This document shows positions 2,497-31,240 of a stretch of 64,000 nt of DNA, one piece after another. The stretch lies in the NCBI RefSeq assembly GCF_003019035.1, contig NZ_CP027447.1; one strand, written 5' to 3'. How positions within the stretch are numbered: position 1 is the first letter of the stretch; every line of letters starts with the position of its first letter. Made by a program: the position numbers and the translations under genes. The notes beneath the pieces are model-generated. The model made no database searches. It was not told where the DNA came from and saw nothing but the letters and a program-made list of their open reading frames with translations. Source of the stretch: Escherichia coli. Lineage in GTDB: Bacteria > Pseudomonadota > Gammaproteobacteria > Enterobacterales > Enterobacteriaceae.

Positions 2497-2676
2497 GTCT
2501 GGCCTCGATAAAATAATGATGGTGATGTTATCAATACTATCGAAAACAGCCCGAAGCAACGGATTCCTCGATGAAATTATTGCGTGCTGCAGAGGGGATG
2601 TGACGGCTGCAAACAAAACCATTCCTGCGAGCCTGCTACTATTGATGGATTCATGCCAAAAGCACAGGAGAGCATT

Positions 2677-11623: not shown

Positions 11624-13732
11624 ATGTCAACCGGATTACGTTTCACGCTGGAAGTGGACGGCCTGCCACCGGACGCGTTTGCGGTGGTTTCCTTTCATCT
11701 CACCCAGTCACTCTCTTCACTTTTTTCCCTTGACCTTTCTCTGGTCAGTCAGCAGTTTCTCTCCCTTGAATTTGCGCAGGTGCTGGACAAAATGGCCTAC
11801 CTGACGGTATGGCAGGGCGATGACGTACAGCGCCGGGTGAAAGGCGTGGTGACCTGGTTTGAACTCGGGGAGAACGACAAAAACCAGATGCTGTACAGCA
11901 TAAAGGTGCGCCCGCCGCTGTGGCGGGCAGGACTGCGTCAGAACTTCCGTATCTTCCAGAACGAGGACATCAGAAGCATCCTCGGCACCATACTGCAGGA
12001 AAATGACGTCACGGAGTGGAGTCCGCTGTTCAGCGAGCCGCATCCTTCCCGTGAGTTTTGTGTCCAGTACGGCGAAACCGATTACGATTTCCTGTGCCGG
12101 ATGGCGGCGGAGGAAGGCATCTTCTTTTATGAGGAGCACGCGCAAAAAAGTACCGACCAGAGCCTGGTCCTGTGCGACACCGTGCGTTATCTGCCGGAGT
12201 CCTTTGAGATCCCCTGGAATCCGAACACCCGTACCGAGGTGAGCACCCTATGCATCAGCCAGTTCCTCTACAGCGCACAAATCCGCCCATCTTCCGTGGT
12301 GACCAAAGACTACACCTTTAAACGACCCGGCTGGGCAGGGCGTTTTGATCAGGAAGGCCAGCACCAGGATTACCAGCGCACACAGTATGAAGTGTATGAC
12401 TACCCCGGACGTTTCAAGGGTGCCCACGGGCAGAACTTTGCCTGCTGGCAGATGGATGGCTGGCGAAACAACGCAGAAGTGGCGCGCGGAACAAGCCGTT
12501 CGCCGGAGATATGGCCGGGACGGCGAATTGCGCTGACGGGGCATCCGCAGGCGAACCTGAACCGGGAATGGCAGGTGGTGGCAAGTGAACTGCACGGCGA
12601 GCAGCCGCAGGCGGTGCCGGGACGCAGTGGTTCAGGTACCACGCTGAATAACCACTTTGCGGTAATACCGGCAGACAGAACATGGCGGCCACAGCCGTTG
12701 CTGAAACCGCTGGTGGACGGCCCGCAGAGCGCCGTCGTGACGGGACCGGCAGGAGAAGAAATCTTCTGTGATGAACATGGCCGCGTGCGGGTGAAATTTA
12801 ACTGGGACCGTTATAACCCGTCAAACCAGGACAGTTCATGCTGGATCCGTGTGGCACAGGCGTGGGCAGGCACCGGGTTTGGTAACCTGGCGATACCGCG
12901 TGTGGGTCAGGAGGTCATTGTGGACTTCCTCAACGGCGATCCGGACCAGCCGATTATTATGGGGCGCACCTACCACCAGGAAAACCGCACCCCCGGCAGC
13001 CTGCCGGGAACAAAGACGCAAATGACCATTCGTTCAAAAACCTATAAGGGCAGCGGGTTTAATGAACTGAAGTTTGACGATGCGACAGGGAAAGAACAGG
13101 TCTACATCCACGCGCAGAAGAACATGAACACCGAGGTGCTGAATAACCGCACCACGGATGTGATAAACAACCATGCTGAGACCATCGGCAACAATCAGGT
13201 GATTGCGGTTACCAACAATCAGATACAGACGGTGGGCGTTAACCAGATAGAGACGGTGGGCAGTAACCAGATCATTAAAGTGGGCTCTGTTCAGGTGGAA
13301 ACGATTGGACTTGTTCGTGCGCTGACTGTGGGCGTGGCGTATCAGACGACGGTAGGTGGCATTATGAACACCTCGGTGGCCCTGATGCAGTCCTCGCAGA
13401 TCGGTTTGCATAAATCGTTGATGGTCGGGCTGGGTTATGACGTCAAAGTCGGAAATAACGTTACCTTCACCGTTGGTAAAACGAAAAAGGATGATACCGG
13501 GCAGACCGCGATTTACTCCGCCGGTGAGCATCTGGAACTCTGCTGTGGTAAGGCAAGGCTGGTGCTGACTAAGGACGGACAAATTTTTCTCAACGGCACA
13601 AAAATTCATTTGCAGGGTAAGGAGCAGGTTAATGGTGACTCACTGTTGATTAACTGGAACTGTGCAGCCTCGAAATCCCCACCGAAGACCCCTGATGAAA
13701 AGCAGGATACGCCGGATATGAGAGAGTACTGA
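11624..13732 (+). CDS. vgrG: Type VI secretion spike protein VgrG, 702 aa
   Basis: ATG at 11624 with GGAGG ribosome-binding site; gp27/gp5-like VgrG sequence (…VDFLNGDPDQPIIMGRTYHQEN…); followed 66 nt later by an rhs start. Confidence 0.85.
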   Translation: MSTGLRFTLEVDGLPPDAFAVVSFHLTQSLSSLFSLDLSLVSQQFLSLEFAQVLDKMAYLTVWQGDDVQRRVKGVVTWFELGENDKNQMLYSIKVRPPLWRAGLRQNFRIFQNEDIRSILGTILQENDVTEWSPLFSEPHPSREFCVQYGETDYDFLCRMAAEEGIFFYEEHAQKSTDQSLVLCDTVRYLPESFEIPWNPNTRTEVSTLCISQFLYSAQIRPSSVVTKDYTFKRPGWAGRFDQEGQHQDYQRTQYEVYDYPGRFKGAHGQNFACWQMDGWRNNAEVARGTSRSPEIWPGRRIALTGHPQANLNREWQVVASELHGEQPQAVPGRSGSGTTLNNHFAVIPADRTWRPQPLLKPLVDGPQSAVVTGPAGEEIFCDEHGRVRVKFNWDRYNPSNQDSSCWIRVAQAWAGTGFGNLAIPRVGQEVIVDFLNGDPDQPIIMGRTYHQENRTPGSLPGTKTQMTIRSKTYKGSGFNELKFDDATGKEQVYIHAQKNMNTEVLNNRTTDVINNHAETIGNNQVIAVTNNQIQTVGVNQIETVGSNQIIKVGSVQVETIGLVRALTVGVAYQTTVGGIMNTSVALMQSSQIGLHKSLMVGLGYDVKVGNNVTFTVGKTKKDDTGQTAIYSAGEHLELCCGKARLVLTKDGQIFLNGTKIHLQGKEQVNGDSLLINWNCAASKSPPKTPDEKQDTPDMREY

Positions 13733-13798
13733 TCCCGTACCTGTTCAGTATTCAGTAACAAACAAGCATTAAAAATAAACAGAAGAAGGAATTGAATC

Positions 13799-13815
13799 AT
13801 GAGCGGAAAACCAGC
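13799..13815 (+). pseudogene. rhs start stub (ATG plus 14 nt) cut off by the H-repeat element
   Basis: atgagcggaaaaccagc matches the first 17 nt of the full-length rhs at 21550 (atgagcggaaaacccgc) at 15 of 17 positions; sits at the usual distance after the vgrG stop. Confidence 0.45.
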
Positions 13816-15106
13816 CAGGGAAAGATCATCAGAAGTACACTTTTTGTACTAAACAATTCGCATTTTATGTTTAAAAATTGAGATATTCCTCATTACCTGA
13901 AGCTGTTTTTTATTGCTTATACATGATCAAATACTCCTTACATAATTAAGGAGAACAAAATGGAACTTAAAAAATTGATGGAGCATATTTCTATTATCCC
14001 CGATTACAGACAAGCCTGGAAAGTGGAACATAAATTATCGGACATTCTACTGTTGACTATTTGTGCCGTTATTTCTGGTGCAGAAGGCTGGGAAGATATA
14101 GAGGATTTTGGGGAAACACATCTCGATTTTTTGAAGCAATATGGTGATTTTGAAAATGGTATTCCTGTTCACGATACCATTGCCAGAGTTGTATCCTGTA
14201 TCAGTCCTGCAAAATTTCACGAGTGCTTTATTAACTGGATGCGTGACTGCCATTCTTCAGATGATAAAGGCGTCATTGCAATTGATGGAAAAACGCTCCG
14301 GCACTCTTATGACAAGAGTCGCCGCAGGGGAGCGATTCATGTCATTAGTGCGTTCTCAACAATGCACAGTCTGGTCATCGGACAGATCAAGACGGATGAG
14401 AAATCCAATGAGATTACAGCTATCCCAGAACTTCTTAACATGCTGGATATTAAAGGAAAAATCATCACAACTGATGCGATGGGTTGCCAGAAAGATATTG
14501 CAGAGAAGATACAAAAACAGGGAGGTGATTATTTATTCGCTGTAAAAGGAAATCAGGGGCGGCTTAATAAAGCCTTTGAGGAAAAATTTCCACTGAAAGA
14601 ATTAAATAATCCAGAGCATGACAGTTACGCAATGAGTGAAAAGAGTCACGGCAGAGAAGAAATCCGTCTTCACATTGTTTGCGATGTCCCTGATGAACTT
14701 ATTGATTTCACGTTTGAATGGAAAGGTCTGAAGAAATTATGCGTGGCAGTCTCCTTTCGGTCAATAATAGCAGAACAAAAGAAAGAGCCAGAAATGACGG
14801 TCAGATATTATATCAGTTCTGCTGATTTAACCGCAGAGAAGTTCGCCACAGCAATCCGAAACCACTGGCACGTGGAGAATAAGCTGCACTGGCGTCTGGA
14901 CGTGGTAATGAATGAAGACGACTGCAAAATAAGAAGAGGAAACGCCGCAGAATTATTTTCAGGGATACGGCACATCGCTATTAATATTTTAACGAATGAT
15001 AAGGTATTCAAGGCAGGGTTAAGACGTAAGATGCGAAAAGCTGCCATGGACAGAAACTATCTCGCGTCAGTCCTTGCGGGGAGCGGGCTTTCGTAATCTT
15101 TCCCTG
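13816..15106 (+). mobile_element. H-repeat (ISAs1-family) insertion sequence, copy 1, about 1291 bp
   Basis: Terminal inverted repeats cagggaaagat… (13816) and …atctttccctg (ending 15106); encloses the transposase gene. Confidence 0.75.
13960..15096 (+). CDS. H-repeat-associated (ISAs1-family) transposase, 378 aa
   Basis: Track ORF; about 99% identical to the ORFs at 18738..19874 and 26492..27628. Confidence 0.85.
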
Positions 15107-16889
15107 GCTGCTGGAGTTCACGCGCGACCGCCTGCACCGGGAGACGGTGCGCAGCTTCGGCAGCATGGCAGGCAGTAATGCCGCATACGAACTGACCAGC
15201 ACATACACCCCCGCAGGCCAGTTACAGAGCCAGCACCTGAACAGCCTGGTATATGACCGTGACTACGGGTGGAGTGACAACGGCGACCTGGTGCGCATCA
15301 GCGGCCCGCGACAGACGCGGGAATACGGCTACAGCGCCACGGGCAGGCTGGAGAGTGTGCGCACCCTCGCACCGGACCTGGACATCCGCATCCCGTATGC
15401 CACGGACCCGGCGGGCAACCGGCTGCCGGACCCGGAGCTGCACCCGGACAGTACACTCACAGTGTGGCCGGATAACCGAATCACCGAAGACGCGCACTAC
15501 CTGTACCGTTACGATGAATACGGCAGGCTGACGGAGAAGACGGACCGCATCCCGGCGGGTGTGATACGGACGGACGACGAGCGGACCCACCACTACCGCT
15601 ACGACAGCCAGCACCGCCTGGTGTTCCACACGCGGATACAGCATGGCGAGCCACTGGTCGAGAGCCGCTACCTCTACGACCCGCTGGGACGGCGAATGGC
15701 AAAACGGGTCTGGCGGCGGGAGCGTGACCTGACGGGGTGGATGTCGCTGTCGCGTAAACCGGAGGAGACATGGTACGGGTGGGACGGCGACAGGCTGACG
15801 ACGGTGCAGACTGACACCACACGTATCCAGACGGTCTACCAGCCGGGGAGCTTCACGCCGCTCATCCGTATCGAGACAGAGAACGGCGAACGGGAGAAAA
15901 TGCAACGCCGCAGCCTGGCGGAGAAGTTACAGTCGGAAGGGAGTGAGGACGGTCACGGTGTGGTGTTCCCGGCTGAGCTGGTGAGGATGCTGGACAGGCT
16001 GGAGGAAGAAATCCGGGCAGACCGCGTGAGCAGTGAAAGCCGGGCGTGGCTTGCGCAGTGCGGGCTGACGGTGGAGCAACTGGCCAGACAGGTGGAGCCG
16101 GAATACACACCGGCGCGAAAAGTTCATTTTTACCACTGCGACCACCGGGGCCTGCCGCTGGCGCTCATCAGCGAAGACGGCAATACGGTGTGGAGCGGGG
16201 AGTATGATGAATGGGGCAACCAGCTTAATGAGGAGAACCCGCATCATGTGTATCAGCCATACCGCCTGCCGGGGCAGCAGTATGATGAGGAGTCGGGGCT
16301 GTACTATAACCGCAACCGGTACTATGATCCGTTGCAGGGGAGGTATATTACCCAGGATCCGATTGGGCCGGTGGGGGGGTGGAATCCCTATAGTTATGTG
16401 CTTATTAATCCAGCCCAGTTTATTGACCCAACAGGTTTAACTCAAGAGGACAATTGGACCTATGGTGAGGTAGGTAATAGCTGTGTTACGAGTCAACGCG
16501 ATTTTACTCCCCCGCCCGGACTTGCGGATATGAAAGCCAGCATTGGCGCTGCCTGCTCAAGAAACAATGCTTCCAGAAACTGCCACCCCGTAGATGGTAG
16601 TAATGCTTCTGCACCATCGGATAAAGCCGCATGGGAAAATATTCAAAATGCGACAAATGGTAAAGATTTATCTGGTGGTGGAAATATGTTTTGTGTAGGA
16701 AATGAGGACTGTGCGGTTGTTCATAGCTGTCGTGAAATAGTTAATGCTCGACACCCGGCAGGACGAGTGCGTGAACGTGTAACTCCGTTAACAACGTCAG
16801 GAACAGCAACGCTCAATGGAACAACAGTTTACTTTTATAATGATCCCCGGAATGGCAATTGTCCTGCTCACGAATATATTCCTCAATAA
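15107..16889 (+). pseudogene. N-terminally truncated rhs: 3' core (YD repeats) plus a distinct Cys-rich C-terminal tip
   Basis: Near-identical at nucleotide level to 23994..25260 of the full-length rhs; track ORF 15147..16889; tip after the DPxGL-type core boundary (…IDPTGL) is unrelated to the full-length tip. Confidence 0.75.
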
Positions 16890-16939
16890 AGAAAAGTGGC
16901 CAGACTAAGCTCTAGCCACATTTTTTGGAGATCCTTTTC

Positions 16940-17563
16940 ATGAAAAGGTTTTTTATAACATGTTGCGTTATGACATTATTTTTATTTGTTAAATGTAAAG
17001 CAGCGTGTGTAACTTCCTTATATGAGGTTCAGCAATCGCTCTTTACATACATTTATTTGATTAGACAAGACCCTGTTCATTTTGATTCATATATTAAGAA
17101 TGTGCATAACGAATTAAAAATATTCCATGATATTGATAAAGCAATGAATATAGCCTCAGATATGGTCAAAATTATTGATATAAAGACCCGTTTATCATTT
17201 AATAATGATTTATATATATTACAAGGGGAACGACAGTATGCAATAGTTAAGAGTGAAGGGGAAAGTAGTCAATTAAAATCATCAGCATTTATCATATCTA
17301 ATTACCCACTATTTAAAAACAAAGTTCTGTTAATTTTATCCGCTACTAGTCCCGTTCAGTTGGTTATATTGTCTTTTGATCAATGTCTTAATGTGGAGGT
17401 GTTATTTGATTCAATGTCTCCAGTTTTCGCTAAGTATAGAGAAGATATTAGTGCAACATTACCATTATGGAAGGTTATTTTGACAAAAAATGATATAGAA
17501 TTATATGAGTACCATAGAACAAATCCATACTCACTTAACAAATTATTGAGCATGTCAAAATAA
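16940..17563 (+). CDS. Putative cognate immunity protein with signal peptide, about 207 aa
   Basis: ATG at 16940 with GGAG ribosome-binding site; AT-rich; directly downstream of the rhs tip; N-terminal hydrophobic signal-like segment. Confidence 0.55.
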   Translation: MKRFFITCCVMTLFLFVKCKAACVTSLYEVQQSLFTYIYLIRQDPVHFDSYIKNVHNELKIFHDIDKAMNIASDMVKIIDIKTRLSFNNDLYILQGERQYAIVKSEGESSQLKSSAFIISNYPLFKNKVLLILSATSPVQLVILSFDQCLNVEVLFDSMSPVFAKYREDISATLPLWKVILTKNDIELYEYHRTNPYSLNKLLSMSK

Positions 17564-17743
17564 CGGTCAAGTATTCAACGTTGTAATATTATTCCTTTTG
17601 CTGAGTGTCTCGAACGGCTAAAGTTGACGTAAAATGCCACGTTTTGTGGGCAAACCGAATCGGTTAAAAAGCATGGTCCGGGAAAAGCTTAACATCAGCG
17701 CTATCGGTGCCAAATGTGCAGCAGGCCTTTCCAGCCTGATTAC

Positions 17744-18004
17744 CAGGGCAGGGCGGGATCGTGAATATTGTGATGCATATCACATGAACTCCTGGTTTTA
17801 ACTTATTATTTCGGTTAAAATTTAACCACTGAAATCATTAGGATTCGAGCAAAGGGACGGCATATGGATATTCAAAATTTACTGGATTATATTTCTATAA
17901 TTCCTGATTATCGTCAGCAAGGGAAAATAAGGCATAAATTGTCAGATATTTTATTGCTCACTATATGTGCTATTATTGCCGGTTCTGATGAATGGGAGGA
18001 TATT
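17744..18004 (+). mobile_element. Remnant A of an ISAs1-family element (left end plus 5' transposase), interrupted by remnant B
   Basis: IR-like end cagggcagggcgggatcgtg at 17744; transposase N-terminus [21 protein letters not shown]… from 17864. Confidence 0.5.
17864..18004 (+). pseudogene. ISAs1-family transposase 5' fragment (about 46 codons)
   Basis: Homologous to the N-terminus of the intact H-repeat transposases; ends where the next element's end begins. Confidence 0.5.
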
Positions 18005-18593
18005 CAGGGCAAGATCATGAAAATCGTGATGTAAATCACAATTTTCAACCTGGCTTTAACTCCTTCAGGAGATTAAAATTTAACCTATGGAATAACTAAA
18101 AAGATAAAAAAGGACGCCAGATGAGTATTCAAAGTTTGCTTGATTATATTTCAGTGTTCCCTGATATACGACAACAAGGAAAGGTTAAACATAAATTATC
18201 TGATATTTTGTTTCTCACCGTATGTGCAGTAATTGCAGGTGCCGATGAGTGGCAGGAAATTGAAGATTTTGGACATGAAAGACTGGAATGGCTAAAGAAA
18301 TATGGTGATTTTGATAATGGCATTCCGGTCGATGACACCATTGCACGCGTTGTGAGTAACATTGACAGTTTGGCCTTTGAAAAGATGTTTATTGAATGGA
18401 TGCAGGAGTGCCATGAAATCACTGATGGTGAAATTATAGCAATAGATGGAAAGACCATAAGAGGCTCCTTTGATAAGGGAAAAAGGAAAGGAGCAATCCA
18501 TATGGTGAGTGCATTCTCGACTGAAAATGGTGTTGTACTGGGGCAGGTGAAAACGGAAGCCAAAAGTAATGAGATTACAGCCATTCCAGAGTT
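18005..18593 (+). mobile_element. Remnant B of an ISAs1-family element, interrupted by intact copy 2
   Basis: IR-like end cagggcaagatcatgaaaatcg at 18005; transposase 5' ORF from 18121; homology stops at 18593 where copy 2 IR-L begins. Confidence 0.55.
18121..18593 (+). pseudogene. ISAs1-family transposase N-terminal fragment (about 158 codons, divergent paralog)
   Basis: Track ORF 18121..18630 reads through into the next element's end; roughly 60-70% identical by eye to the intact H-repeat transposase. Confidence 0.6.
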
Positions 18594-19884
18594 CAGGGAA
18601 AGATCATCAGAAGTACACTTTTTGTACTAAACAATTCGCATTTTATGTTTAAAAATTGAGATATTCCTCATTACCTGAAGCTGTTTTTTATTGCTTATAC
18701 ATGATCAAATACTCCTTACATAATTAAGGAGAACAAAATGGAACTTAAAAAATTGATGGAACATATTTCTATTATCCCCGATTACAGACAAGCCTGGAAA
18801 GTGGAACATAAATTATCGGATATTCTACTGTTGACTATTTGTGCCGTTATTTCGGGTGCAGAAGGCTGGGAAGATATAGAGGATTTTGGGGAAACACATC
18901 TCGATTTTTTGAAGCAATATGGTGATTTTGATAATGGTATTCCTGTTCACGATACCATTGCCAGAGTTGTATCCTGTATCAGTCCTGCAAAATTTCACGA
19001 GTGCTTTATTAACTGGATGCGTGACTGCCATTCTTCAGATGATAAAGACGTCATCGCAATTGATGGAAAAACACTCCGGCATTCTTATGACAAGAGTCGC
19101 CGCAGGGGAGCGATTCATGTCATTAGTGCGTTCTCAACAATGCACAGTCTGGTCATCGGACAGATCAGGACGGATGAGAAATCCAATGAGATCACAGCTA
19201 TCCCTGAACTTCTTAACATGCTGGATATTAAAGGAAAAATTATCACAACTGATGCAATGGGTTGCCAGAAAGATATTGCAGAGAAGATACAAAAACAGGG
19301 CGGTGATTATTTATTCGCTGTAAAAGGAAATCAGGGTCGGCTAAATAAAGCCTTTGAGGAAAAATTCCCACTGAAAGAATTAAATAATCCAGAACATGAC
19401 AGTTACGCAATGAGTGAAAAGAGTCACGGCAGAGAAGAAATCCGTCTTCACATTGTTTGCGATGTCCCTGATGAACTTATTGATTTCACGTTTGAATGGA
19501 AAGGTCTGAAGAAATTATGCGTGGCAGTCTCCTTTCGGTCAATAATAGCAGAACAAAAGAAAGAGCCAGAAATGACGGTCAGATATTATATCAGTTCTGC
19601 TGATTTAACCGCAGAGAAGTTCGCCACAGCAATCCGAAACCACTGGCACGTGGAGAATAAGCTGCACTGGCGTCTGGACGTGGTAATGAATGAAGACGAC
19701 TGCAAAATAAGAAGAGGAAACGCCGCAGAATTATTTTCAGGGATACGGCACATCGCTATTAATATTTTGACGAATGATAAGGTATTCAAGGCAGGGTTAA
19801 GACGTAAGATGCGAAAAGCTGCCATGGACAGAAACTATCTCGCGTCAGTCCTTGCGGGGAGCGGGCTTTCGTAATCTTGCCCTG
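18594..19884 (+). mobile_element. H-repeat (ISAs1-family) insertion sequence, copy 2, about 1291 bp
   Basis: IR-L cagggaaagatcatcag at 18594; IR-R …atcttgccctg ending 19884; same length as copy 1. Confidence 0.75.
18738..19874 (+). CDS. H-repeat-associated (ISAs1-family) transposase, 378 aa
   Basis: Track ORF; near-identical to copies 1 and 3. Confidence 0.85.
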
Positions 19885-19896
19885 CTTTGTAATGGT

Positions 19897-20079
19897 ATGG
19901 CAGGAGGATATGAATTTGCAGTAAGTAAATTTGGTCAGTCGGCCTATGATGCCGCACAGGAAAAAGCATTAAATAACTATATGGAATTTGAAATGTTAGA
20001 TTTATTACAAAGCATGGGAGAGAATGTCAATCCAGATGAATATAAGCAGGCGCATGATAGAGTTGTTAATCCAAATTGA
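19897..20079 (+). CDS. Small hypothetical protein, about 60 aa, possibly a toxin-tip remnant
   Basis: ATG at 19897 just after copy 2 IR-R; track ORF 19852..20079 starts inside the insertion sequence; ends 15 nt before the next gene's ATG. Confidence 0.3.
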   Translation: MAGGYEFAVSKFGQSAYDAAQEKALNNYMEFEMLDLLQSMGENVNPDEYKQAHDRVVNPN

Positions 20080-20093
20080 ATGCAGAGGGGAGT

Positions 20094-20657
20094 ATGTTAT
20101 TAAAACTGATAATGTTATTTTCAATATTTTTTATCCCGTTTTTGGCAGGTTGCAGTATGTTTGATGATGTTTTTGAGAAAAACTACTCATTGAGTTCTGT
20201 CGCCAGTTTTCCAGATGACGTTGATGAATTAAAAGAAATATGGTTTTTTTGTGAAAGATGTTTAAGTGATGAGCAGTGCGAAAATCATGACATTAAACAA
20301 TGTAGAGATGTAACTATTCCCGGTAGAGATGAAGCATTAAGTAAAGCTGTAGGCAGAGCCAATGTCGAAGCTGTTTACTTTCTTGTTGATGTGGCAAAAA
20401 CTGATGTCAATGGTATTACAGGTAAATATAAGGAAACACCATTAATTATTGCTGCATATTATGGAACTCAAGCACATCAGGATATAGCTGAATTTTTGCT
20501 ATTGCATGGGGCAGATATTAATAAAACTTACCCAGCCATTGGGCGAAATCCTCTAGGTGTCGCCAGATGGAAGCATAATGTCGATTTCGTTAATTTTCTA
20601 CTGAAGCATGGTGCTGAACCAGCAGTACATATGGGGTCGATTGAGAATAAAGAGTGA
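20094..20657 (+). CDS. Ankyrin-repeat lipoprotein, about 187 aa, immunity-like
   Basis: ATG at 20094 with GAGGGGA ribosome-binding site; lipobox FLAGC; ankyrin repeats (…TPLIIAAYYG…LLLHGADIN…). Confidence 0.6.
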   Translation: MLLKLIMLFSIFFIPFLAGCSMFDDVFEKNYSLSSVASFPDDVDELKEIWFFCERCLSDEQCENHDIKQCRDVTIPGRDEALSKAVGRANVEAVYFLVDVAKTDVNGITGKYKETPLIIAAYYGTQAHQDIAEFLLLHGADINKTYPAIGRNPLGVARWKHNVDFVNFLLKHGAEPAVHMGSIENKE

Positions 20658-21100
20658 GATTTAACAAAAATGCAATTCATGCTCTCGCCTTGGGTGACGG
20701 TATTGATACTGCTTTTAAGTGTTCAGGAAAAATGGAAAGTGGTAAACCCTTAAAATCTTCGGGCAAATGGGATTACTCTGTTGGTGGGACAAATGGTGCC
20801 TTTCTTTATCTTAAAGACTATTCAAATATTTTGACGGCTGGCCACACAGGAAATCTGGCAGTTACTTTTCTTGGAAGTTACAATGCTCAATATTCAATAA
20901 ACGGAAACTCTCTGGATGTAGTTGTAACAAATTCTTCAACGATACAATCAGCGACACATCCCCCAATCCTGGAGTATACAAAATGGTGGCAGGATAATAT
21001 TGGTAATCCTTTGGATAGAAAATTTCAAAAAGGTCCCACGTCCCCAAAAACACAAACCATAAATTTACACTTTGATTTGTCATGTGCGTGCAAAAAATGA
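20654..21100 (+). CDS. Hypothetical protein, 148 aa, no signal peptide
   Basis: Track ORF with GTG start overlapping the upstream stop (GTGA) and stop overlapping the downstream ATG; no recognisable domain. Confidence 0.35.
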   Translation: MRFNKNAIHALALGDGIDTAFKCSGKMESGKPLKSSGKWDYSVGGTNGAFLYLKDYSNILTAGHTGNLAVTFLGSYNAQYSINGNSLDVVVTNSSTIQSATHPPILEYTKWWQDNIGNPLDRKFQKGPTSPKTQTINLHFDLSCACKK

Positions 21101-21480
21101 AAATTTTATTTATGTTATTATTAATTATCTTGAGTGGATGTGATGGCGAAAATGATGCCAAATTTGTTGGGCAATGGCTTGCTGATATTGATGGTGATAT
21201 AAAATCAGAATTGATCGTGAAGGCAAATGGAATTTTTTATTTCAAGAATATGCCTATGGAGACAGTTTGTCGCGAGGATAAAACATATAAGGCTAATTTT
21301 TTCGGGGATTGGACTATTAATATTGACAATAGGATTGATATTTCAATGGATAATGTTAATTCTGAACGGTGTAATATTCCATCCTCGTATTTAATTAATG
21401 GGTTTTATGATGGTGGATATTTTTTATGTCAGAAAGGATTGTCTTTTTTCCAGACGGACCTGATGAGCCAGGTAATATGA
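21097..21480 (+). CDS. Small lipoprotein, about 127 aa, immunity-like
   Basis: ATG at 21097; lipobox ILSGC; AT-rich. Confidence 0.45.
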   Translation: MKILFMLLLIILSGCDGENDAKFVGQWLADIDGDIKSELIVKANGIFYFKNMPMETVCREDKTYKANFFGDWTINIDNRIDISMDNVNSERCNIPSSYLINGFYDGGYFLCQKGLSFFQTDLMSQVI

Positions 21481-21549
21481 TCATTTATATTAAACAATGA
21501 AAGTATTGATCGTGAGCAGATTAAATATATAAGAAATTAAGGAGATACC

Positions 21550-24500
21550 ATGAGCGGAAAACCCGCGGCACGCCAGGGTGATGCCACGCTGAAAGGCGGT
21601 CCGATAGTCCAGGGGTCAGCGGGGGTGCTGATAGGCGCGCCCACCGGCGTGGCGTGCTCGGTGTGTCCGGGCGGGATGACTTCGGGCAACCCGGTAAATC
21701 CGCTGCTGGGGGCGAAGGTGCTGCCCGGCGAGACGGACCTTGCCCTGCCCGGCCCGCTGCCGTTCATTCTCTCCCGCACCTACAGCAGCTACCGGACGAG
21801 GACGCCTGCCCCGGTGGGCGTTTTCGGCCCCGGCTGGAAAGCGCCTTCGGATATCCGCTTACAGCTACGTGATGACGCACTGATACTCAACGACAACGGC
21901 GGGCGGAGCATTCACTTTGAGCCGCTGCTGCCGGGGGAGGCGGTGTACAGCCGCAGCGAGTCAATGTGGCTGGTGCGCGGTGGTAAGGCAGCGCAGCCGG
22001 ACGGCCACACGCTGGCGCGACTGTGGGGGGCGCTGCCGCCGGATATCCGGTTAAGCCCGCATCTTTACCTGGCGACCAACAGCGCACAGGGGCCGTGGTG
22101 GATACTCGGCTGGTCAGAGCGGGTGCCGGGTACTGAGGACGTACTGCCAGCGCCGCTGCCGCCGTACCGGGTGCTTACCGGGCTGGCGGACCGCTTCGGG
22201 CAGACGCTGACGTACCGGCGTGAGGCCGCCGGTGACCTGGCCGGGGAAATCACCGGCGTGACGGACGGTGCCGGGCGGAAGTTCCGTCTGGTGCTGACCA
22301 CGCAGGCGCAGCGTGCGGAAGAGGCCCGCACCTCTTCGCTATCTTCTTCTGACCGTTCCCGCCCTCTCTCAGCCTCAGCGTTCCCCGACACACTGCCCGG
22401 TACGGAATACGGCCCCGACAGGGGCATCCGTCTTTCGGCGGTGTGGCTGATGCACGACCCGGCATACCCGGAAAGCCTGCCCGGTGCGCCACTGGCGCGG
22501 TACACGTATACGGAAGCCGGTGAACTGCTGGCGGTATATGACCGCAGCAATACGCAGGTGCGCGCTTTCACGTATGACGCGCAGCACCCGGGCCGGATGG
22601 TGGCGCACCGTTACGCGGGAAGGCCGGAGATGCGCTACCGCTACGACGATACGGGGCGGGTGGTGGAGCAACTGAACCCGGCAGGGTTAAGCTACCGCTA
22701 TCTTTATGAGCAGGACCGCATCACCATCACGGACAGCCTGAACCGGCGAGAGGTGCTGCATACAGAAGGCGGGGCCGGGCTGAAGCGGGTGGTGAAAAAA
22801 GAACTGGCGGACGGCAGCGTCACGCACAGCGGGTATGACGCGGCAGGAAGGCTCACGGCACAGACGGACGCGGCGGGACGGCAGACAGAGTACGGTCTGA
22901 ATGTGGTGTCAGGCGATATCACGGACATCACCACGCCGGACGGGCGGGAGACGAAATTTTACTATAACGACGGGAACCAGGTGACGGCAGTGGTGTCCCC
23001 GGACGGGCTGGAGAGCCGCCGGGCGTATGATGAGCGGGACAGGCTGGTAACGGAGACATCGCGCAGTGGGGACGTCATCCGGTATGCTTATGATAATCCG
23101 CACAGTGAATTACCGGCCACGACAACAGATGCGACGGGCAGCACCCGGCAGATGACCTGGAGCCGCTACGGGCAGTTGCTGGCGTTCACCGACTGCTCGG
23201 GCTACCAGACCCGCTATGAATACGACCGCTTCGGCCAGATGACGGCGGTCCACCGCGAGGAAGGCATCAGCCTTTACCGCCGCTATGACAACCGTGGCCG
23301 GTTAACCTCGGTGAAAGACGCACAGGCCCGTGAAACGCAGTATGAGTACAACGCCGCAGGCGACCTGACTGCCGTTATCACCCCGGATGGCAACCGGAGT
23401 GAGACACAGTACGATGGGTGGGGAAAGGCCATCAGCACCACGCAGGGCGGGCTGACGCGCAGTATGGAGTACGATGCTGCCGGACGTATCACCACGCTGA
23501 CTAACGAGAACGGCAGCCACAGCGACTTTAGTTACGATGCGCTGGACCGCCTGATACAGCAGGGCGGCTTTGACGGGCGGACGCAACGTTATCATTATGA
23601 CCTGACCGGAAAACTCACGCAGAGTGAAGATGAGGGGCTTGTCATCCTCTGGTACTACGATGAATCGGACCGTATTACTCACCGCACGGTAAACGGTGAA
23701 CCGGCAGAACAGTGGCGGTATGACGGCCACGGCTGGCTGAGAGAAATCAGCCACCTGAGCGAAGGCCACCGTGTTGCCGTCCACTATGGCTATGATAATA
23801 AAGGCCGCCTGACCAGTGAGCGCCAGACGGTGCATCACCCGGAGACGGGAGAGCTGCTCTGGCAGCATGAGACCGGACATGCGTACAACGAACAGGGGCT
23901 GGCAAACCGCGTCACGCCGGACAGTCTGCCGCCGGTGGAGTGGCTGACCTATGGTAGCGGTTATCTGGCAGGCATGAAGCTGGGCGGGACGCCGCTGCTG
24001 GAGTTCACGCGCGACCGCCTGCACCGTGAGACGGTGCGCAGCTTCGGCAGCATGGCAGGCAGTAATGCCGCATACGAACTGACCAGCACATACACCCCTG
24101 CAGGCCAGTTACAGAGTCAGCACCTGAACAGCCTGGTGTATGACCGTGACTACGGGTGGAATGACAACGGAGACCTGGTGCGCATCAGCGGCCCGCGACA
24201 GACGCGGGAATACGGCTACAGCGCCACGGGCAGGCTGGAGAGTGTGCGCACCCTCGCACCGGACCTGGACATCCGCATCCCGTATGCCACGGACCCGGCG
24301 GGCAACCGGCTGCCGGACCCGGAGCTGCACCCGGACAGTACACTCACAGTGTGGCCGGATAACCGCATCGCGGAGGATGCGCACTATGTCTACCGCCACG
24401 ATGAATACGGCAGGCTGACGGAGAAGACGGACCGCATCCCGGCGGGTGTGATACGGACGGACGACGAGCGGACCCACCACTACCACTACGACAGCCAGCA

Positions 24501-25803
24501 CCGCCTGGTGTTCTACACGCGGATACAGCATGGCGAGCCACTGGTCGAGAGCCGCTACGTCTACGACCCGCAGGGACGGCGAATGGCGAAACGGGTATGG
24601 CGGCGGGAGCGTGACCTGACGGGGTGGATGTCGCTGTCGCGTAAACCGGAGGTGACGTGGTACGGCTGGGACGGCGACCACCTGACGACGGTGCAGACCG
24701 ACAGCACACGTATCCAGACGGTATACGAGCCGGGAAGCTTCACACCGCTCATCCGCATCGAAACAGACAACGGCGAGCGGGAGAAAACGCAGCGGCGGAG
24801 CCTGGCGGAGAAGCTCCAGCAGGAAGGGAGCGAGGACGGACACGGTGTGGTGTTCCCGGCTGAACTGGTGAGGATGCTGGACAGGCTGGAGGAAGAAATC
24901 CGGGCAGACCGCGTGAGCGGTGAAAGCCGGACGTGGCTTGCACAGTGCGGGCTGGCGGTGGAGCAACTGGAAAAACAGGTGGAGCCGGAATACACGCCGG
25001 AACGCACACTGCATCTTTACCACTGCGACCACCGGGGACTGCCGCTGGCGCTTATCAGCGAAGACGGCAATACGGTGTGGAGCGCGGAGTATGATGAATG
25101 GGGAAACCTGCTTAATGAGGAGAACCCGCATCATGTGTATCAGTCATACCGTCTGCCGGGGCAGCAGCATGATGAGGAGTCGGGGCTGTATTATAACCGG
25201 AACCGGTACTATGACCCGCTACAGGGGAGGTATATCACCCAGGATCCAATCGGGCTAAGAGGTGAATGGAATCTGTATAAATATCCATTAAACCCTGTTC
25301 GGTTTATAGATTCTTTGGGTTTAAAATTCCATGTTAACGGTGATCCAAGTGATTTTAATCAGGCTGTTGAGTATTTAAAACAAGATTCACGAATGAAAGA
25401 AGCTATAGATTTTTTATCAAGCTCTGAAGAAACCATAAAGATAGAGTATATTGATGAAACCGACGTTAGATTTGACCCGGATAAAATGACTATATATTGG
25501 AATGGTAAGGCGGCTTTATTTTGTTCAACTGATTTAAAATCGAAATCACAATCACCTGCATTAGGTTTGGGGCATGAGTTTGCTCATGCGCACTTATATC
25601 TTATTGATAAGGATGGTTATATGGGGCTTGTGAGACGTGCGGATGAACAATATAAAAATAAAGAAGAGGCGAGAGTTATCACTTTAATTGAACAGCATGC
25701 GGCGAAAACTTTAGGTGAGTGTACCAGAACAGCATATAATGGAGTGTATTATCGTGTGAATACACCAACGCAGACGGCAACAATAAATGGCACGCCAGAA
25801 TAG
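21550..25803 (+). CDS. Full-length Rhs polymorphic toxin, 1417 aa: PAAR-like N-terminus, YD-repeat shell, HExxH-containing C-terminal tip
   Basis: Track ORF with AAGGAG ribosome-binding site; N-terminus [11 protein letters not shown]…; repeated YD motifs; core boundary …YITQDPIGL…IDSLGL; tip contains [10 protein letters not shown]. Confidence 0.9.
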
Positions 25804-25815
25804 TGAGATTTTTTT

Positions 25816-26265
25816 ATGATGAAATATTTGATGGTTTTATTGTCTCTATTTTCTGCTTCGGTATTGGGGATGGGGCGAGTGAATGAATTGTGTGGAATAG
25901 ATAGTGTGAAAACGATAGAAATAATTAATCTTCCAGCATATGTTACCACCTTAACCCCGCTTAGCAAGGAAGGTCTCAAGAGAATATACAAACATAAAGT
26001 GGTGGTGAATGGAGTTAGCGATTTTTATGCTGGTGAGATAATTGATTTATTGCAAATGAAGTATTTCAGGAAGGAGGAGAATAACGATATAAGATGGGGG
26101 GTTGACATTGTTTCGAATAAAAATAATAAATGTGAAATTTATTTTGATGGTTTTGGTGAATGTGGAAGTGTGAATGGCATTAACGTATGTTTTGAAAAAA
26201 ATGAAATGATAGATTGGATTAAAAAAGAAATCCCTTTTCTGTCGCAAGAAATAGGTGGTCTTTAA
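25816..26265 (+). CDS. Putative cognate immunity protein with signal peptide, 149 aa
   Basis: Track ORF 13 nt after the rhs stop; AT-rich; N-terminus MMKYLMVLLSLFSASVLG. Confidence 0.55.
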   Translation: MMKYLMVLLSLFSASVLGMGRVNELCGIDSVKTIEIINLPAYVTTLTPLSKEGLKRIYKHKVVVNGVSDFYAGEIIDLLQMKYFRKEENNDIRWGVDIVSNKNNKCEIYFDGFGECGSVNGINVCFEKNEMIDWIKKEIPFLSQEIGGL

Positions 26266-26322
26266 ATGGTAGGGCAATATTCAAAGACAGTATAGGTAAC
26301 TATTTGTATGGACATGTAAGGT

Positions 26323-27638
26323 CAGGGAAAGATCACGTAACGCTGCTCAGGGAAAGATCACGTAACGCTGCTTTTTTGTACTAAACAATCCGCATTTTAT
26401 GTTTAAAAATTGAGATATTCCTCATTACCTAAAGCTGTTTTTTATTGCTTATACATGATCAAATACTCCTTACATAATTAAGGAGAACAAAATGGAACTT
26501 AAAAAATTGATGGAACATATTTCTATTATCCCCGATTACAGACAAGCCTGGAAAGTGGAACATAAATTATCGGATATTCTACTGTTGACTATTTGTGCCG
26601 TTATTTCGGGTGCAGAAGGCTGGGAAGATATAGAGGATTTTGGGGAAACACATCTCGATTTTTTGAAGCAATATGGTGATTTTGATAATGGTATTCCTGT
26701 TCACGATACCATTGCCAGAGTTGTATCCTGTATCAGTCCTGCAAAATTTCACGAGTGCTTTATTAACTGGATGCGTGACTGCCATTCTTCAGATGATAAA
26801 GACGTCATCGCAATTGATGGAAAAACACTCCGGCATTCTTATGACAAGAGTCGCCGCAGGGGAGCGATTCATGTCATTAGTGCGTTCTCAACAATGCACA
26901 GTCTGGTCATCGGACAGATCAGGACGGATGAGAAATCCAATGAGATCACAGCTATCCCTGAACTTCTTAACATGCTGGATATTAAAGGAAAAATTATCAC
27001 AACTGATGCAATGGGTTGCCAGAAAGATATTGCAGAGAAGATACAAAAACAGGGCGGTGATTATTTATTCGCTGTAAAAGGAAACCAGGGGCGGCTAAAT
27101 AAAGCCTTCGAGGAAAAATTTCCGCTGAAAGAATTAAATAATCCAGAGCATGACAGTTACGCAATGAGTGAAAAGAGTCACGGCAGAGAAGAAATCCGTC
27201 TTCACATTTTTTGCGATGTCCCTGATGAACTTATTGATTTCACGTTTGAATGGAAAGGTCTGAAGAAATTATGCGTGGCAGTCTCCTTTCGGTCAATAAT
27301 AGCAGAACAAAAGAAAGAGCCAGAAATGACGGTCAGATATTATATCAGTTCTGCTGATTTAACCGCAGAGAAGTTCGCCACAGCAATCCGAAACCACTGG
27401 CACGTGGAGAATAAGCTGCACTGGCGTCTGGACGTGGTAATGAATGAAGACGACTGCAAAATAAGAAGAGGAAATGCAGCAGAATTATTTTCAGGGATAC
27501 GGCACATCGCTATTAATATTTTGACGAATGATAAGGTATTCAAGGCAGGGTTAAGACGTAAGATGCGAAAAGCAGCCATGGACAGAAACTATCTGGCGTC
27601 AGTCCTTGCGGGGAGCGGGCTTTCGTAATCTTTCCCTG
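26323..27638 (+). mobile_element. H-repeat (ISAs1-family) insertion sequence, copy 3, with a 25-bp tandem duplication at its left end
   Basis: cagggaaagatcacgtaacgctgct occurs twice in tandem (26323..26372); IR-R …atctttccctg ends at 27638. Confidence 0.7.
26492..27628 (+). CDS. H-repeat-associated (ISAs1-family) transposase, 378 aa
   Basis: Track ORF; near-identical to copies 1 and 2. Confidence 0.85.
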
Positions 27639-27744
27639 TTTGTTTATATAAATGCCAAGATATTCTTTCTCAAAATATTGACTTCAGATTAACCGTGTTC
27701 CACGCAAACAATTTTCAAACATTCATCAATAGATAAGGAATTCC

Positions 27745-28212
27745 ATGTTTATACGACCAGTCAAACCTTCAGATGTTGAACCATTACTGGATATGCTGCT
27801 TGCCAGTGGACAATTTGATCAAGATGGCCTTCATCATGTACAAAAAACACTAACACATTATTTCTCAGGTCAATCTGCCGATTTATGGTTTAGTGCAGAA
27901 CACTTAGGACTGGCAGGGATTGCCTATTGCGCTCCTGAAGTGATGACAAATGATGTCTGGAATTTATTAATGCTCTGGATCAGTCCTTCCCATCAGCGCC
28001 AGGGAGTGGGACATCTGCTGATTAACGAAATAGAAAAAGAGCTCACAATTAAACAGGCAAGACTACTTTTAGTAGAGACCTCCAGCCATATCGATTTTAG
28101 TGCCGCCCGCGCATTTTATACAAAACAGGGCTTTATCAATGAAGCTATAATACGCAATTACTATGATGTTGGTGAGGATAAATTAATCTTCACTAAGAAT
28201 ATACAATCGTGA
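27745..28212 (+). CDS. GNAT-family N-acetyltransferase, 155 aa
   Basis: Track ORF; acetyl-CoA-binding motif (QRQGVGHLL). Confidence 0.7.
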   Translation: MFIRPVKPSDVEPLLDMLLASGQFDQDGLHHVQKTLTHYFSGQSADLWFSAEHLGLAGIAYCAPEVMTNDVWNLLMLWISPSHQRQGVGHLLINEIEKELTIKQARLLLVETSSHIDFSAARAFYTKQGFINEAIIRNYYDVGEDKLIFTKNIQS

Positions 28213-28277
28213 AATAAAATGTGCTTTTAACTCATATGGAAACATTGCTTAAAAAACCGGTCGCTGCATATGATTCT

Positions 28278-28847
28278 TTAGCCCGCGGTGACTCGCTTCC
28301 CGCTGGTAACAAACGTGCCAGCGCCTAAATGATGCAACGTATTGAGCTTATCATCATCAAACTGCCAGCGGCCTTCGACAAATACCCGTGCGTCTGCCGC
28401 TGCTGATACCACTTCGCCAAACAGCGTGTCGTATTTCTCTTGCGCGGAAGTCGCTGGTAGCAATCGGCACTCCATCCACGCCAGACATTTCTCTTCAACA
28501 AGTGGCAAACCAAGCACCGGACCTTCCACCACCGGAATGCCATAGCAATTAAATTTATCCTCTTCACGCCCAGATACACTTCCCACTGCCCACGTCCAGT
28601 TAGTCGCTGCAACGCCTGGGATAACGATGCCAAATTTACCGTTACGCTCAATCAACTCCCTGGTCCATGTCGACTTATCTACCACAATCGCCACGCGTGG
28701 CGGTTCAAACTCTACGGGCATAGACCAGGCTGCTGCCATCACATTACGTCGCTGTGATTTTTCATCAAAAGTTGTTATCAAAACTGTGGGGCCGTGGTTT
28801 AACAGACGGCTGGCATGGTGTAATTCGACGGGAATGAATTGGCTCAC
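28278..28847 (-). CDS. yddH: Flavin reductase-like domain protein, 189 aa
   Basis: Track ORF; synteny with nhoA. Confidence 0.8.
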   Translation of the reverse strand: MSQFIPVELHHASRLLNHGPTVLITTFDEKSQRRNVMAAAWSMPVEFEPPRVAIVVDKSTWTRELIERNGKFGIVIPGVAATNWTWAVGSVSGREEDKFNCYGIPVVEGPVLGLPLVEEKCLAWMECRLLPATSAQEKYDTLFGEVVSAAADARVFVEGRWQFDDDKLNTLHHLGAGTFVTSGKRVTAG

Positions 28848-29021
28848 GATATCGCCTCGCTATGAAGGGTGTTTTAAAAGCGTAGCTCGTAACGCAATAA
28901 GTAACGAAATTAACGGGATTGGCGATTTGCGAACGTGATGCATGTCCGCGATCGCACAAAATAGCCGGTGCGGCGTCTATTCCAGGTTATAAGTTGAGAA
29001 AACCACTAAGGGAAACGCCTG

Positions 29022-29867
29022 ATGACGCCCATTCTGAATCATTATTTTGCCCGTATTAACTGGTCGGGAGCTGCTGCGGTCAATATTGATACGCTGCGTG
29101 CATTGCACCTGAAACACAATTGCACTATTCCGTTTGAAAACCTCGACGTTTTGCTGCCGAGGGAAATACAGCTTGATGATCAATCGCTGGAAGAGAAACT
29201 GGTGATAGCCCGTCGTGGCGGTTACTGTTTTGAGCAGAATGGCGTGTTTGAGCGGGTGTTATGCGAGCTGGGGTTTAACGTTCGCAGCTTGTTAGGGCGC
29301 GTAGTGTTATCAAATCCGCCAGCATTACCGCCGCGCACCCATCGTTTGCTGTTGGTGGAACTGGAAGGGGAAAAATGGATTGCTGATGTCGGCTTCGGTG
29401 GGCAGACGCTAACCGCGCCGATTCGTTTAGTTCCCGATCTCGTGCAGTTCACGCCACACGGAGAGTATCGGTTGTTACAGGAGGGTGATGATTGGGTGTT
29501 GCAGTTTAATCATCATCAGCACTGGCAGTCGATGTACCGTTTTGATCTCTGCGAGCAGCAACAAAGCGATTATGTGATGGGCAATTTCTGGTCGGCGCAC
29601 TGGCCGCAGTCGCATTTTCGCCATCATTTGCTGATGTGTCGCCATTTGCCGGACGGTGGCAAGCTAACGCTGACCAATTTTCATTTTACCCATTATGAAA
29701 ATGGGCACGCAGTTGAGCAGCGAAATCTACCAGATGTGGCGTCGTTATATGCCGTGATGCAGGAACAGTTTGGTCTGGGCATGGATGATGTGAAACATGG
29801 CTTTACTGTGGATGAGTTAGCGCTGGTGATGGCGGCGTTTGATACGCACCCGGAGGCGGGAAAATAA
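29022..29867 (+). CDS. nhoA: Arylamine N-acetyltransferase, 281 aa
   Basis: Track ORF; NAT-family sequence; matches K-12 NhoA length. Confidence 0.85.
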   Translation: MTPILNHYFARINWSGAAAVNIDTLRALHLKHNCTIPFENLDVLLPREIQLDDQSLEEKLVIARRGGYCFEQNGVFERVLCELGFNVRSLLGRVVLSNPPALPPRTHRLLLVELEGEKWIADVGFGGQTLTAPIRLVPDLVQFTPHGEYRLLQEGDDWVLQFNHHQHWQSMYRFDLCEQQQSDYVMGNFWSAHWPQSHFRHHLLMCRHLPDGGKLTLTNFHFTHYENGHAVEQRNLPDVASLYAVMQEQFGLGMDDVKHGFTVDELALVMAAFDTHPEAGK

Positions 29868-29880
29868 TTTATGTCAGGTT

Positions 29881-29985
<105 letters not shown>

Positions 29986-30014
29986 GCCAGACACAGCGCC
30001 GTCAGGCGCTGTTG

Positions 30015-31240
<1,226 letters not shown>

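Follow-up and report, generated by a model that had tools for sequence, protein, structure and literature searches.

ISAs1 copies and a rearranged set of rhs genes at the vgrG-rhs locus of an Escherichia coli chromosome

What kind of locus fills the interval between yncH and yddH in the Escherichia coli genome GCF_003019035.1, and by which rearrangements did it reach its present state? We analysed a 64,000-nucleotide stretch of contig NZ_CP027447.1 (hereafter the window), in which a preliminary description had listed about 16 kb of DNA holding a vgrG gene, the start stub of an rhs gene, several insertion sequence (IS) copies and two rhs genes. Each element was checked by listing open reading frames (ORFs), by comparing the window with itself and by direct sequence reading, and identities were taken from NCBIfam and Pfam profiles; the inventory was recovered nearly gene for gene. 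We conclude with considerable confidence that the island is the ancestral E. coli vgrG-rhs locus for auxiliary type VI secretion system (T6SS) effectors, located between yncG/yncH and pptA/yddH and also known as rhsE or position 6, in a strain-specific state rearranged by copies of ISAs1. It is a rare arrangement of an already well-described locus type, the yncG-pptA interval being rhs "position 6", one of three rhs loci older than the species (Jackson et al. 2009, PMC2935791).

The features of the locus are as follows.

11624-13732, plus strand: vgrG (tssI), encoding an intact T6SS spike protein of 702 aa (ORF from 11588, annotated start at 11624)
13800-13816, plus strand: start stub (MSGKPA...) of the original vgrG-adjacent rhs, 17 bp, cut by ISAs1 copy A
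13816-15106, plus strand: ISAs1 copy A (H-repeat, ISEc1-like), transposase at 13960-15096
15107-16889, plus strand: 5'-truncated rhs, the 3' 1.8 kb with the Cys-rich tip1 (DPTGL boundary at 16425-16439)
16970-17563, plus strand: imm1, putative immunity gene to tip1 (ORF 16925/16970-17563), signal-peptide-like N-terminus
17595-17745, plus strand: IS1 transposase fragment, after the annotation of the collinear SCU-301, D8 and YZMc3-1 records
17851-18004, plus strand: N-terminal remnant of an ISAs1-family transposase, interrupted by the next element
18005-18593, plus strand: second ISAs1-family remnant (yncI-like, ISEc26-like), cut by ISAs1 copy B
18594-19884, plus strand: ISAs1 copy B, transposase at 18738-19874
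19885-20079, plus strand: small gene 1, tail (64 codons) of a phospholipase-A2-type Rhs tip
20094-20657, plus strand: small gene 2, ankyrin-repeat lipoprotein (lipobox LAGC), putative immunity to the phospholipase A2 (PLA2) tip
20654-21100, plus strand: small gene 3, truncated orphan toxin tip of a family without a name
21097-21480, plus strand: small gene 4, small lipoprotein (lipobox LSGC), putative immunity to the small gene 3 tip
21550-25803, plus strand: full-length Rhs of 1417 aa with tip2 (25324-25803)
25816-26265, plus strand: imm2 (dsORF-h1 type), 149 aa, putative immunity to tip2, signal-peptide-like N-terminus
26323-27638, plus strand: ISAs1 copy C (element 26348-27638, transposase at 26492-27628), preceded by a 25-bp duplicate of its left end

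The G+C content is about 0.63 in the rhs cores versus 0.29-0.46 in the tips, immunity genes and small ORFs.

The preliminary description had linked the locus to a T6SS, and this link is supported. The VgrG protein reaches 623.8 bits with TIGR03361, for which the cut-off is 186, and Pfam recognises the domains Phage_GPD (E-value 5e-74), Phage_base_V (8e-15) and Gp5_trimer_C (9e-26) in it. A near-identical genome, GCA_030294445.1, carries T6SS genes on the same contig as its copy of the locus (JASUXI010000001.1, 5.1 Mb): a partial tssC (the locus ends within it), tssB, hcp, vgrG, an rhs encoding 1405 aa, an immunity ORF and an ISAs1, adjoining yafV-ivy-fadE, that is at the dnaQ-fadE site. The T6SS-cluster vgrG of this genome (702 aa) shares 98.4% nucleotide identity with the vgrG of the window, and the two proteins differ at eight residues, every one within the first 128. 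SCU-301, the closest complete RefSeq relative, has, in the interval from yafV to tRNA-Asp/dnaQ, a complete T6SS core cluster (hcp, tssB, C, E, F, G, tagH, tssJ, K, L, H, vasI, tssA, tssM, a VasL-domain gene, a second hcp and vgrG-rhs-ISAs1). T6SS machinery genes, whose absence would have spoken against the link, are thus present in the lineage.

How unusual is the locus within the species? K-12 had been described beforehand as lacking vgrG and holding only an rhsE fragment, ydcD and H-repeat genes here, and alignment agrees: K-12 MG1655 carries yncH, an rhsE pseudogene, ydcD, yncO, yncI, ydcC, pptA and yddH at this site, and its homology to the window ends at 11556, just before vgrG, and restarts in the rhs core at about 23758. 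The island is indeed expanded relative to K-12, but K-12 is a poor baseline, since the presence of vgrG is the majority state in E. coli. Among 5426 complete E. coli genomes, which served for all rarity counts, 2929 carry the yncH-vgrG junction (probed with yncH plus the first kb of vgrG, and counted when at least 80% of the probe was covered). Judging from these alignments, K-12 is the reduced outlier, a deletion derivative. The locus is syntenic with the vgrG-rhs loci of E. coli C, D8, YZMc3-1 and 88-3493, and it exceeds in size the plain vgrG-rhs-immunity-ISAs1 arrangement that E. coli C and YZMc3-1 have (in E. coli C, an intact series of vgrG, rhs, ydcD, an ISAs1 remnant, ydcC and pptA). 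In strain FDAARGOS_1283, the same yncG-yddH site holds a different T6SS module, PAAR-VgrG-peptidase M35, together with an ISAs1 fragment; the site therefore appears to be a general slot for T6SS auxiliary modules.

The particular layout of the window is rare at every scale. The whole 20-kb layout is found in a single genome (SCU-301, at a coverage of at least 80%), which is also the only one with the contiguous pair of junctions joining vgrG, stub, ISAs1 and rhs core. The small-ORF block (19885-21549) occurs in three genomes and the combination of tip1, imm1 and the IS1 fragment in 11, versus 1084 for tip2 with imm2, mostly at 88.5% nucleotide identity and annotated "RHS element protein dsORF-h1". 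Looking up the 1417-aa Rhs by exact protein match returned one record, the GCA_030294445.1 contig, which has the same gene order. Over 17,951 bp, this contig and the window agree at 99.944%, with ten differences, all within ISAs1 copies. These differences are tightly clustered (14553-14592, 19190-19256 and 27209), as expected from conversion between IS copies or from polishing cross-talk between repeats. SCU-301 is collinear with the window at 99.5% identity but lacks about 970 bp of rhs. The gap corresponds to window positions 22941-23913, with a 10-bp overlap at the junction, in an assembly with frameshift flags where a deletion and a collapse are indistinguishable. Finally, CFSAN061771 is 99.96% identical through vgrG and ISAs1 copy A, and then diverges.

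Which rhs gene was originally linked to vgrG? The stub, ATGAGCGGAAAACCAGC, shares its first codons with the rhs at 21550 and runs straight into the left end of ISAs1 copy A; in E. coli C, D8 and YZMc3-1, the rhs start is collinear with it up to position 13815. On the other side of ISAs1 copy A, the truncated rhs matches positions 833-1261 only of NF041261, at 907.9 bits (cut-off 2000), and is not a complete core. In YZMc3-1, the vgrG-adjacent rhs is full length and followed by tip1, imm1, the same IS1 fragment and then ISAs1. The segment 15107-17710 of the window (truncated rhs, tip1, imm1 and IS1 fragment) matches the 3' part of this unit at 97.7% identity, and the truncated rhs by itself is 97-98% identical to the 3' part of the YZMc3-1 rhs and to the second rhs of D8. 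The truncated rhs is therefore the original main gene, in which ISAs1 copy A now takes the place of nucleotides 18 to about 2444. It still shares a core repeat of 1.26 kb with the full-length gene (15107-16368 versus 23994-25255, 93.7% identity).

The tip of this truncated gene, tip1, is rich in cysteines, as read from its sequence, and has only six homologues. It had no Pfam match, a PDB sequence search gave nothing significant, and structure prediction from an alignment of four sequences yielded a model with a predicted local distance difference test score (pLDDT) of 44, which was unusable, such that no fold search was made from it. Directly downstream, imm1 (G+C 0.29) accompanies tip1 in all 11 genomes that carry it, as does the IS1 fragment. 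It matched no family in NCBIfam or Pfam, and its position makes it the putative immunity protein for tip1.

The four small genes between ISAs1 copy B and the full-length rhs are coupled and overlapping (19852-21480), as had been reported beforehand. They are not accessory genes, however, but two toxin-tip remnants and two immunity genes. Ankyrin repeats were the sole NCBIfam or Pfam match among these small ORFs, and their identities come mainly from D8, in which the DNA homologous to 19885-22510 (97.3% identity) begins inside the tip of a full-length, vgrG-adjacent Rhs. This D8 tip contains the sequence CRNHDICYG and matches Pfam Phospholip_A2_3 (PF09056, prokaryotic phospholipase A2; E-value 5e-5). 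The catalytic CxxHDxCY motif lies upstream of the point where ISAs1 copy B cuts the window copy and is absent from it; small gene 1 is therefore no more than the last 64 codons of that tip, its reading frame continuing out of the IS end. Small gene 2 (Pfam Ank_2, E-value 4.6e-10) directly follows the PLA2-tipped Rhs in D8, and is therefore the presumptive immunity protein of the PLA2 tip.

Small gene 3 (148 aa) has 17 relatives among 5.8 billion proteins, all of them longer. Several open with the end of an Rhs/YD core (DPLGL or ...RYFDIAGL), followed by an EWLTGxGPRHRxFxxGD block, which is absent from the window ORF; this block and TGNLAVTFLGSY...NSSTIQSATHPP are the conserved blocks of the family. 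As the relatives are longer and have an additional N-terminal block, small gene 3 represents the C-terminal two-thirds of a toxin tip without a name. It had no Pfam match and nothing significant in a PDB sequence search, and the D8 copy has an internal stop codon. We also considered an EagR/DUF1795 chaperone, a candidate that was rejected since small gene 3 matches no such family and aligns to the C-terminal part of Rhs-type toxin tips. Small gene 4 matched no family in NCBIfam or Pfam; from its position and its N-terminal lipobox, it is presumably the immunity protein of the small gene 3 tip. All four immunity candidates of the locus start with export-type segments (two lipoboxes, and signal-peptide-like N-termini in imm1 and imm2), which suggests that the toxins of the locus act in the envelope.

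Two rhs tips with immunity genes had been announced for the locus. Both are present, but only one of the four toxin modules, the full-length Rhs with tip2, is still joined to a complete delivery domain. This Rhs scores 2717 bits against NF041261 (cut-off 2000), also matches TIGR01643 and TIGR03696, and contains ten Pfam RHS_repeat matches and a DUF6531 domain at residues 46-123. The core/tip boundary (25243-25323) shows DPIGL at residue 1232 and DSLGL at residue 1254, the latter being found in all RhsH-type relatives, and the G+C content is 0.63 in the core, 0.37 in tip2 and 0.34 in imm2.

Where does this complete gene come from? Its sequence is a mosaic of three parts. At the 5' end, 960 bp match the second rhs of D8 at 97% identity. 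Over the central 2.25 kb (22800-25050), identity to the rhs in the T6SS cluster of GCA_030294445.1 is 100%, with identities of 84-97% in the flanking intervals, and the same segment is 99-100% identical to the T6SS-cluster rhs of SCU-301. The 3' portion (the last 157 bp of the core with tip2 and imm2) corresponds at 97.9% identity to an orphan fragment of 88-3493, the tip alone reaching 98-100%. In 88-3493, the main rhs still carries tip1, and the tip2/imm2 orphan is located directly after its ISAs1. The simplest reading is that a downstream orphan tip gained a complete core, which was then recently converted by the T6SS-cluster paralogue; we infer the order of these two steps. The central segment provides direct sequence evidence for rhs-core gene conversion between position 6 and the main T6SS cluster.

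The tip of the complete gene belongs to a common family, with 591 representative relatives at E-values of at most 1e-3, mostly located at protein C-termini. In an alignment of 30 of these sequences, H84, E85, H88 and E123 are invariant (HExxH...E), and 20 of the 30 match Pfam Peptidase_M91 (the NleD family). The AlphaFold model has a pLDDT of 96 and a predicted template modelling score (pTM) of 0.91. A PDB sequence search gave nothing significant, and the family profile reached only an E-value of 1.1 to botulinum neurotoxin E (BoNT/E); a relationship between M91 peptidases and botulinum neurotoxins has been published (PMC6367388). From its sequence family and model, tip2 is a predicted M91/NleD-like zinc protease with a predicted fold resembling the botulinum light chain. 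Its neighbour imm2 is co-located with a tip2 homologue in 1084 genomes (in 1017 of them at a coverage of at least 80%), and is the putative immunity protein of tip2.

What role did IS elements play? ISAs1 copies A, B and C are 1291 bp each, 97-98% identical to one another, and each has an intact 378-aa transposase ORF (the domains DDE_Tnp_1_assoc and DDE_Tnp_1 are recorded for the ISAs1 transposase genes in the record that contains the exact Rhs). All three have the terminal inverted repeats CAGGGAAAGAT, with ends reading CAGGGAAAGAT(C/T)A, and a copy identical to A is annotated as ISEc1 in CFSAN061771. No matching target-site duplication was found at the flanks of any of the three copies, which fits deletion or inter-copy recombination after insertion. 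The two remnants upstream of ISAs1 copy B (17851-18004 and 18005-18593) are nested one within the other and cut by that copy. The first is 75% identical to 18108-18261, and the second matches the 5' part of yncI from K-12 and E. coli C at 96.9% identity and is assigned to the ISEc26 family in the SCU-301 annotation. The description of the locus as actively rearranging is well founded, as target-site duplications are missing, the vgrG-proximal rhs has lost most of its 5' part (nucleotides 18 to about 2444) beside ISAs1 copy A, the full-length rhs is a three-part mosaic, and near-identical strains differ in layout.

Some smaller observations concern the same elements. About 15 bases at the left end of ISAs1 copy C do not agree with copies A and B, and a 25-bp tandem copy of this end stands directly before the element (26323-26347). 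Independent truncations of rhs cores converge within 240 bp (at about 23758, 23896 and 23994 in window coordinates): these are the start of the K-12 rhsE pseudogene, the ISAs1-adjacent orphan in D8 and YZMc3-1, and the ISAs1 copy A junction of the window, respectively.

How could such a locus work, and how could it have arisen? In the mechanism we propose, a VgrG trimer would cap the Hcp tube formed by the T6SS whose genes lie at the dnaQ-fadE/aspV site, and the full-length Rhs would mount on VgrG via its N-terminal PAAR-like/DUF6531 region. The YD-repeat shell would enclose the C-terminal tip, and autocleavage at the DPxGL-type boundary would free it. The tip would then be fired into neighbouring bacteria, the live warhead being the compact M91/NleD-like zinc metalloprotease, while the small exported protein imm2 would shield sister cells. 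We infer delivery by the T6SS, autocleavage and immunity pairing for this locus from Rhs/T6SS biology established elsewhere (PMC8636562, PMC8765631, PMC3967940).

As for its history, the lineage may first have carried vgrG-rhs(tip1)-imm1-IS1'-ISAs1, a state kept in YZMc3-1. The main rhs would then have lost nucleotides 18 to about 2444 beside ISAs1 copy A, so that tip1 was disarmed and imm1 retained. A second array lies between ISAs1 copies B and C, comprising the PLA2 tip remnant, the ankyrin immunity gene, the truncated tip, the lipoprotein immunity gene and a full-length rhs. The rhs core of this array may have been converted by the paralogous rhs of the T6SS cluster, its tip/immunity pair corresponding to the downstream orphan pair of 88-3493. 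The net effect would be a deployed toxin switched from tip1 to the M91 tip, with three older immunity genes kept. The retained immunity genes could protect against kin firing the older toxins and, together with the 1.26-kb core repeat, could serve as substrate for further switching.

In its strongest form, this scenario states that the locus records a complete IS-assisted toxin switch, with ISAs1-linked disarming of tip1, re-arming of the orphan M91 tip by core conversion from the T6SS cluster 1.3 Mb away, and maintenance of the immunity genes; we regard this full version as rather unlikely. Several observations weigh against the proposed mechanism and history. Residues 5-8 of the Rhs read literally PAAR, but Pfam PAAR_motif gave no match at E-values up to 10. 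The full-length rhs sits 7.8 kb and two IS copies away from vgrG, and a promoter and terminator consensus scan found weak sites only, in numbers little above those in shuffled sequences and none convincing upstream of 21550. The tip2 of the window itself reaches an E-value of only 0.056 against Peptidase_M91, its assignment resting on the family. In the near-identical GCA_030294445.1, only tssC (partial), tssB, hcp, vgrG and rhs were directly seen; SCU-301 alone showed the full tssA-M set, and its tssH carries a frameshift annotation (in an assembly with many such flags). Lastly, the order of the rearrangement events cannot be fixed from sequence comparison.

Could the locus instead be a decayed relic that delivers no toxin, the IS elements having uncoupled rhs from vgrG and its promoter, while selection keeps four immunity genes against neighbours? 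The missing promoter signal upstream of 21550 would fit, as would the truncation of three of the four toxin modules, the intact state of all four small downstream ORFs, the absence of about 970 bp of the "live" rhs from SCU-301, and the loss in CFSAN061771 of everything from ISAs1 copy A to a later ISAs1. However, vgrG is intact, the 1417-aa ORF is unbroken and above the curated cut-off for full-length proteins, and the 2.25-kb identity of its core to an intact T6SS-cluster rhs indicates recent conversion rather than decay. Moreover, the small ORFs and rhs share a strand and either overlap or adjoin one another, which makes read-through possible. We therefore hold a mere immunity store to be fairly improbable. 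A toxin-antitoxin-like module, in which the truncated rhs(tip1) and imm1 would act within the producing cell rather than as stored ammunition, appears very unlikely. An in-frame GTG at 15147 does open a 580-aa ORF just after ISAs1 copy A, and an orphan rhs of Salmonella offers a reported precedent (PMC7043789). However, the export-type N-terminus of imm1 and the Cys-rich nature of tip1 point outside the cytoplasm, and the promoter scan lent no support.

Another possibility is that the 9-kb block formed by ISAs1 copy B, the array and ISAs1 copy C arrived as a composite transposon or cassette from another Escherichia lineage, rather than by local rearrangement. The ISAs1 copies bracketing the unit are in direct orientation, the small-gene block is known from three genomes only, and the right flank (the GNAT gene, yddH and nhoA), at most about 95% identical outside SCU-301, points to an imported tract. 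By contrast, no target-site duplication surrounds the unit, D8 has the small-gene block and the rhs 5' end at the same site without flanking IS, tip2 and imm2 occupy an equivalent position after ISAs1 in 88-3493, and the core is identical to a resident paralogue. To our knowledge, ISAs1 has not been documented to move composite units, and we find such an import improbable. Finally, three 1.3-kb repeats and one of 1.26 kb might have been mis-joined during assembly, and the differences from GCA_030294445.1 are confined to ISAs1 copies; but SCU-301 and GCA_030294445.1 show the same order and unique sequence flanks every junction on both sides, which makes an artefact scarcely credible.

The reading as an ancestral vgrG-rhs locus in a rearranged state leaves the general picture unaltered, as auxiliary T6SS islands of vgrG and rhs with orphan tips, immunity genes and H-repeats are well described. 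The locus is nevertheless useful as a clean worked example of how the deployed toxin may change within one lineage while old immunities are retained. If ISAs1 activity combined with inter-locus core conversion were routine, it would give E. coli a generally available, rapid way to exchange the T6SS toxins it deploys, and would contradict the judgement of Jackson et al. (2009) that core recombination between loci is infrequent. With all four immunity proteins looking exported, the site would also be a store of envelope-acting toxins, including an M91-like protease and two nameless tip families. In any case, the locus singles out three predicted toxin domains: a common minimal protease of the M91/botulinum-light-chain type with an exported-looking immunity protein, a rare Cys-rich tip, and the EWLTGxGPRHR-type domain.

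Three features of the surrounding DNA deserve mention. To the right of the island (27639-29931), a GNAT acetyltransferase gene (27745-28212) stands where pptA would be, and the yddH-nhoA alleles are 100% identical only in SCU-301, versus at most about 95% in all other complete E. coli genomes. The yddH-nhoA tract looks like an import from a divergent lineage; a 26-mer from yddH, used in search of a donor, had no exact match in GTDB species representatives. Further along, nhoA and yddE are separated by an IS110-family element (29932-31207) whose 326-aa ORF occupies 30035-31015 on the minus strand; the element is annotated as IS621 in SCU-301 and is absent from CFSAN061771. The sole Rfam match in the window is a bacterial SECIS element (SECIS_3, 84 bits) at 46462-46520 on the plus strand, presumably within a selenoprotein gene.

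How does the locus compare with known systems? Its closest counterpart is position 6 as found in E. coli C and in EDL933, in which rhsE lies downstream of its own vgrG (PMC7216683). They share the site, a vgrG leading directly into the start of a Clade I rhs, an AT-rich tip that a small ORF follows, and ISAs1/H-repeats downstream. In the window, however, the vgrG-adjacent rhs has been gutted by ISAs1, the sole complete rhs lies 7.8 kb downstream behind two tip remnants, three intact ISAs1 copies are present instead of one, and the GNAT gene takes the place of pptA. Position 6 of SE11 and Shigella sonnei similarly holds two rhs core types in tandem, one clustering with position 1 (dnaQ-fadE; PMC2935791), just as one of the two core types of the window is related to the rhs of the T6SS cluster at position 1. 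D8 shares with the window the block of PLA2 tip, ankyrin gene, small ORFs and second rhs, but in the opposite module order (PLA2-tipped rhs first, tip1 rhs second) and without IS interruption.

For tip2, the nearest relatives are the RhsH-type tip with dsORF-h1 and the "Rhs-Peptidase M91" encoded downstream of vgrG in the Shiga toxin-producing E. coli O22:H8, whose activity is only predicted (bioRxiv 10.1101/2024.03.05.583533). All combine an HExxH metallopeptidase tip with a vgrG-linked Rhs and lack an EagR chaperone, whereas the tip allele of the window is only about 88.5% identical at the nucleotide level (73-76% in amino acids) to the common RhsH-type form. Compared with NleD (M91) and the botulinum light chain (M27), tip2 is a 159-aa minimal core with predicted T6SS delivery on an Rhs carrier, and its exported-looking immunity protein would point to a target in the bacterial envelope rather than to a eukaryotic kinase or SNARE.

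Finally, the locus recalls the switching between rhs-main and rhs-orphan in Salmonella Typhimurium (Koskiniemi et al. 2014, PMC3967940), where a main rhs and an orphan tip/immunity pair share a core repeat, so that recombination can change the deployed toxin. The window differs in that it is known from its sequence alone, that IS elements are involved, and that the truncated orphan lies upstream of the complete gene. Because of this order, a simple deletion joining the repeat at 15107-16368 to that at 23994-25255 would ruin the complete gene, and tip1 could be re-armed through unequal exchange or duplication alone.

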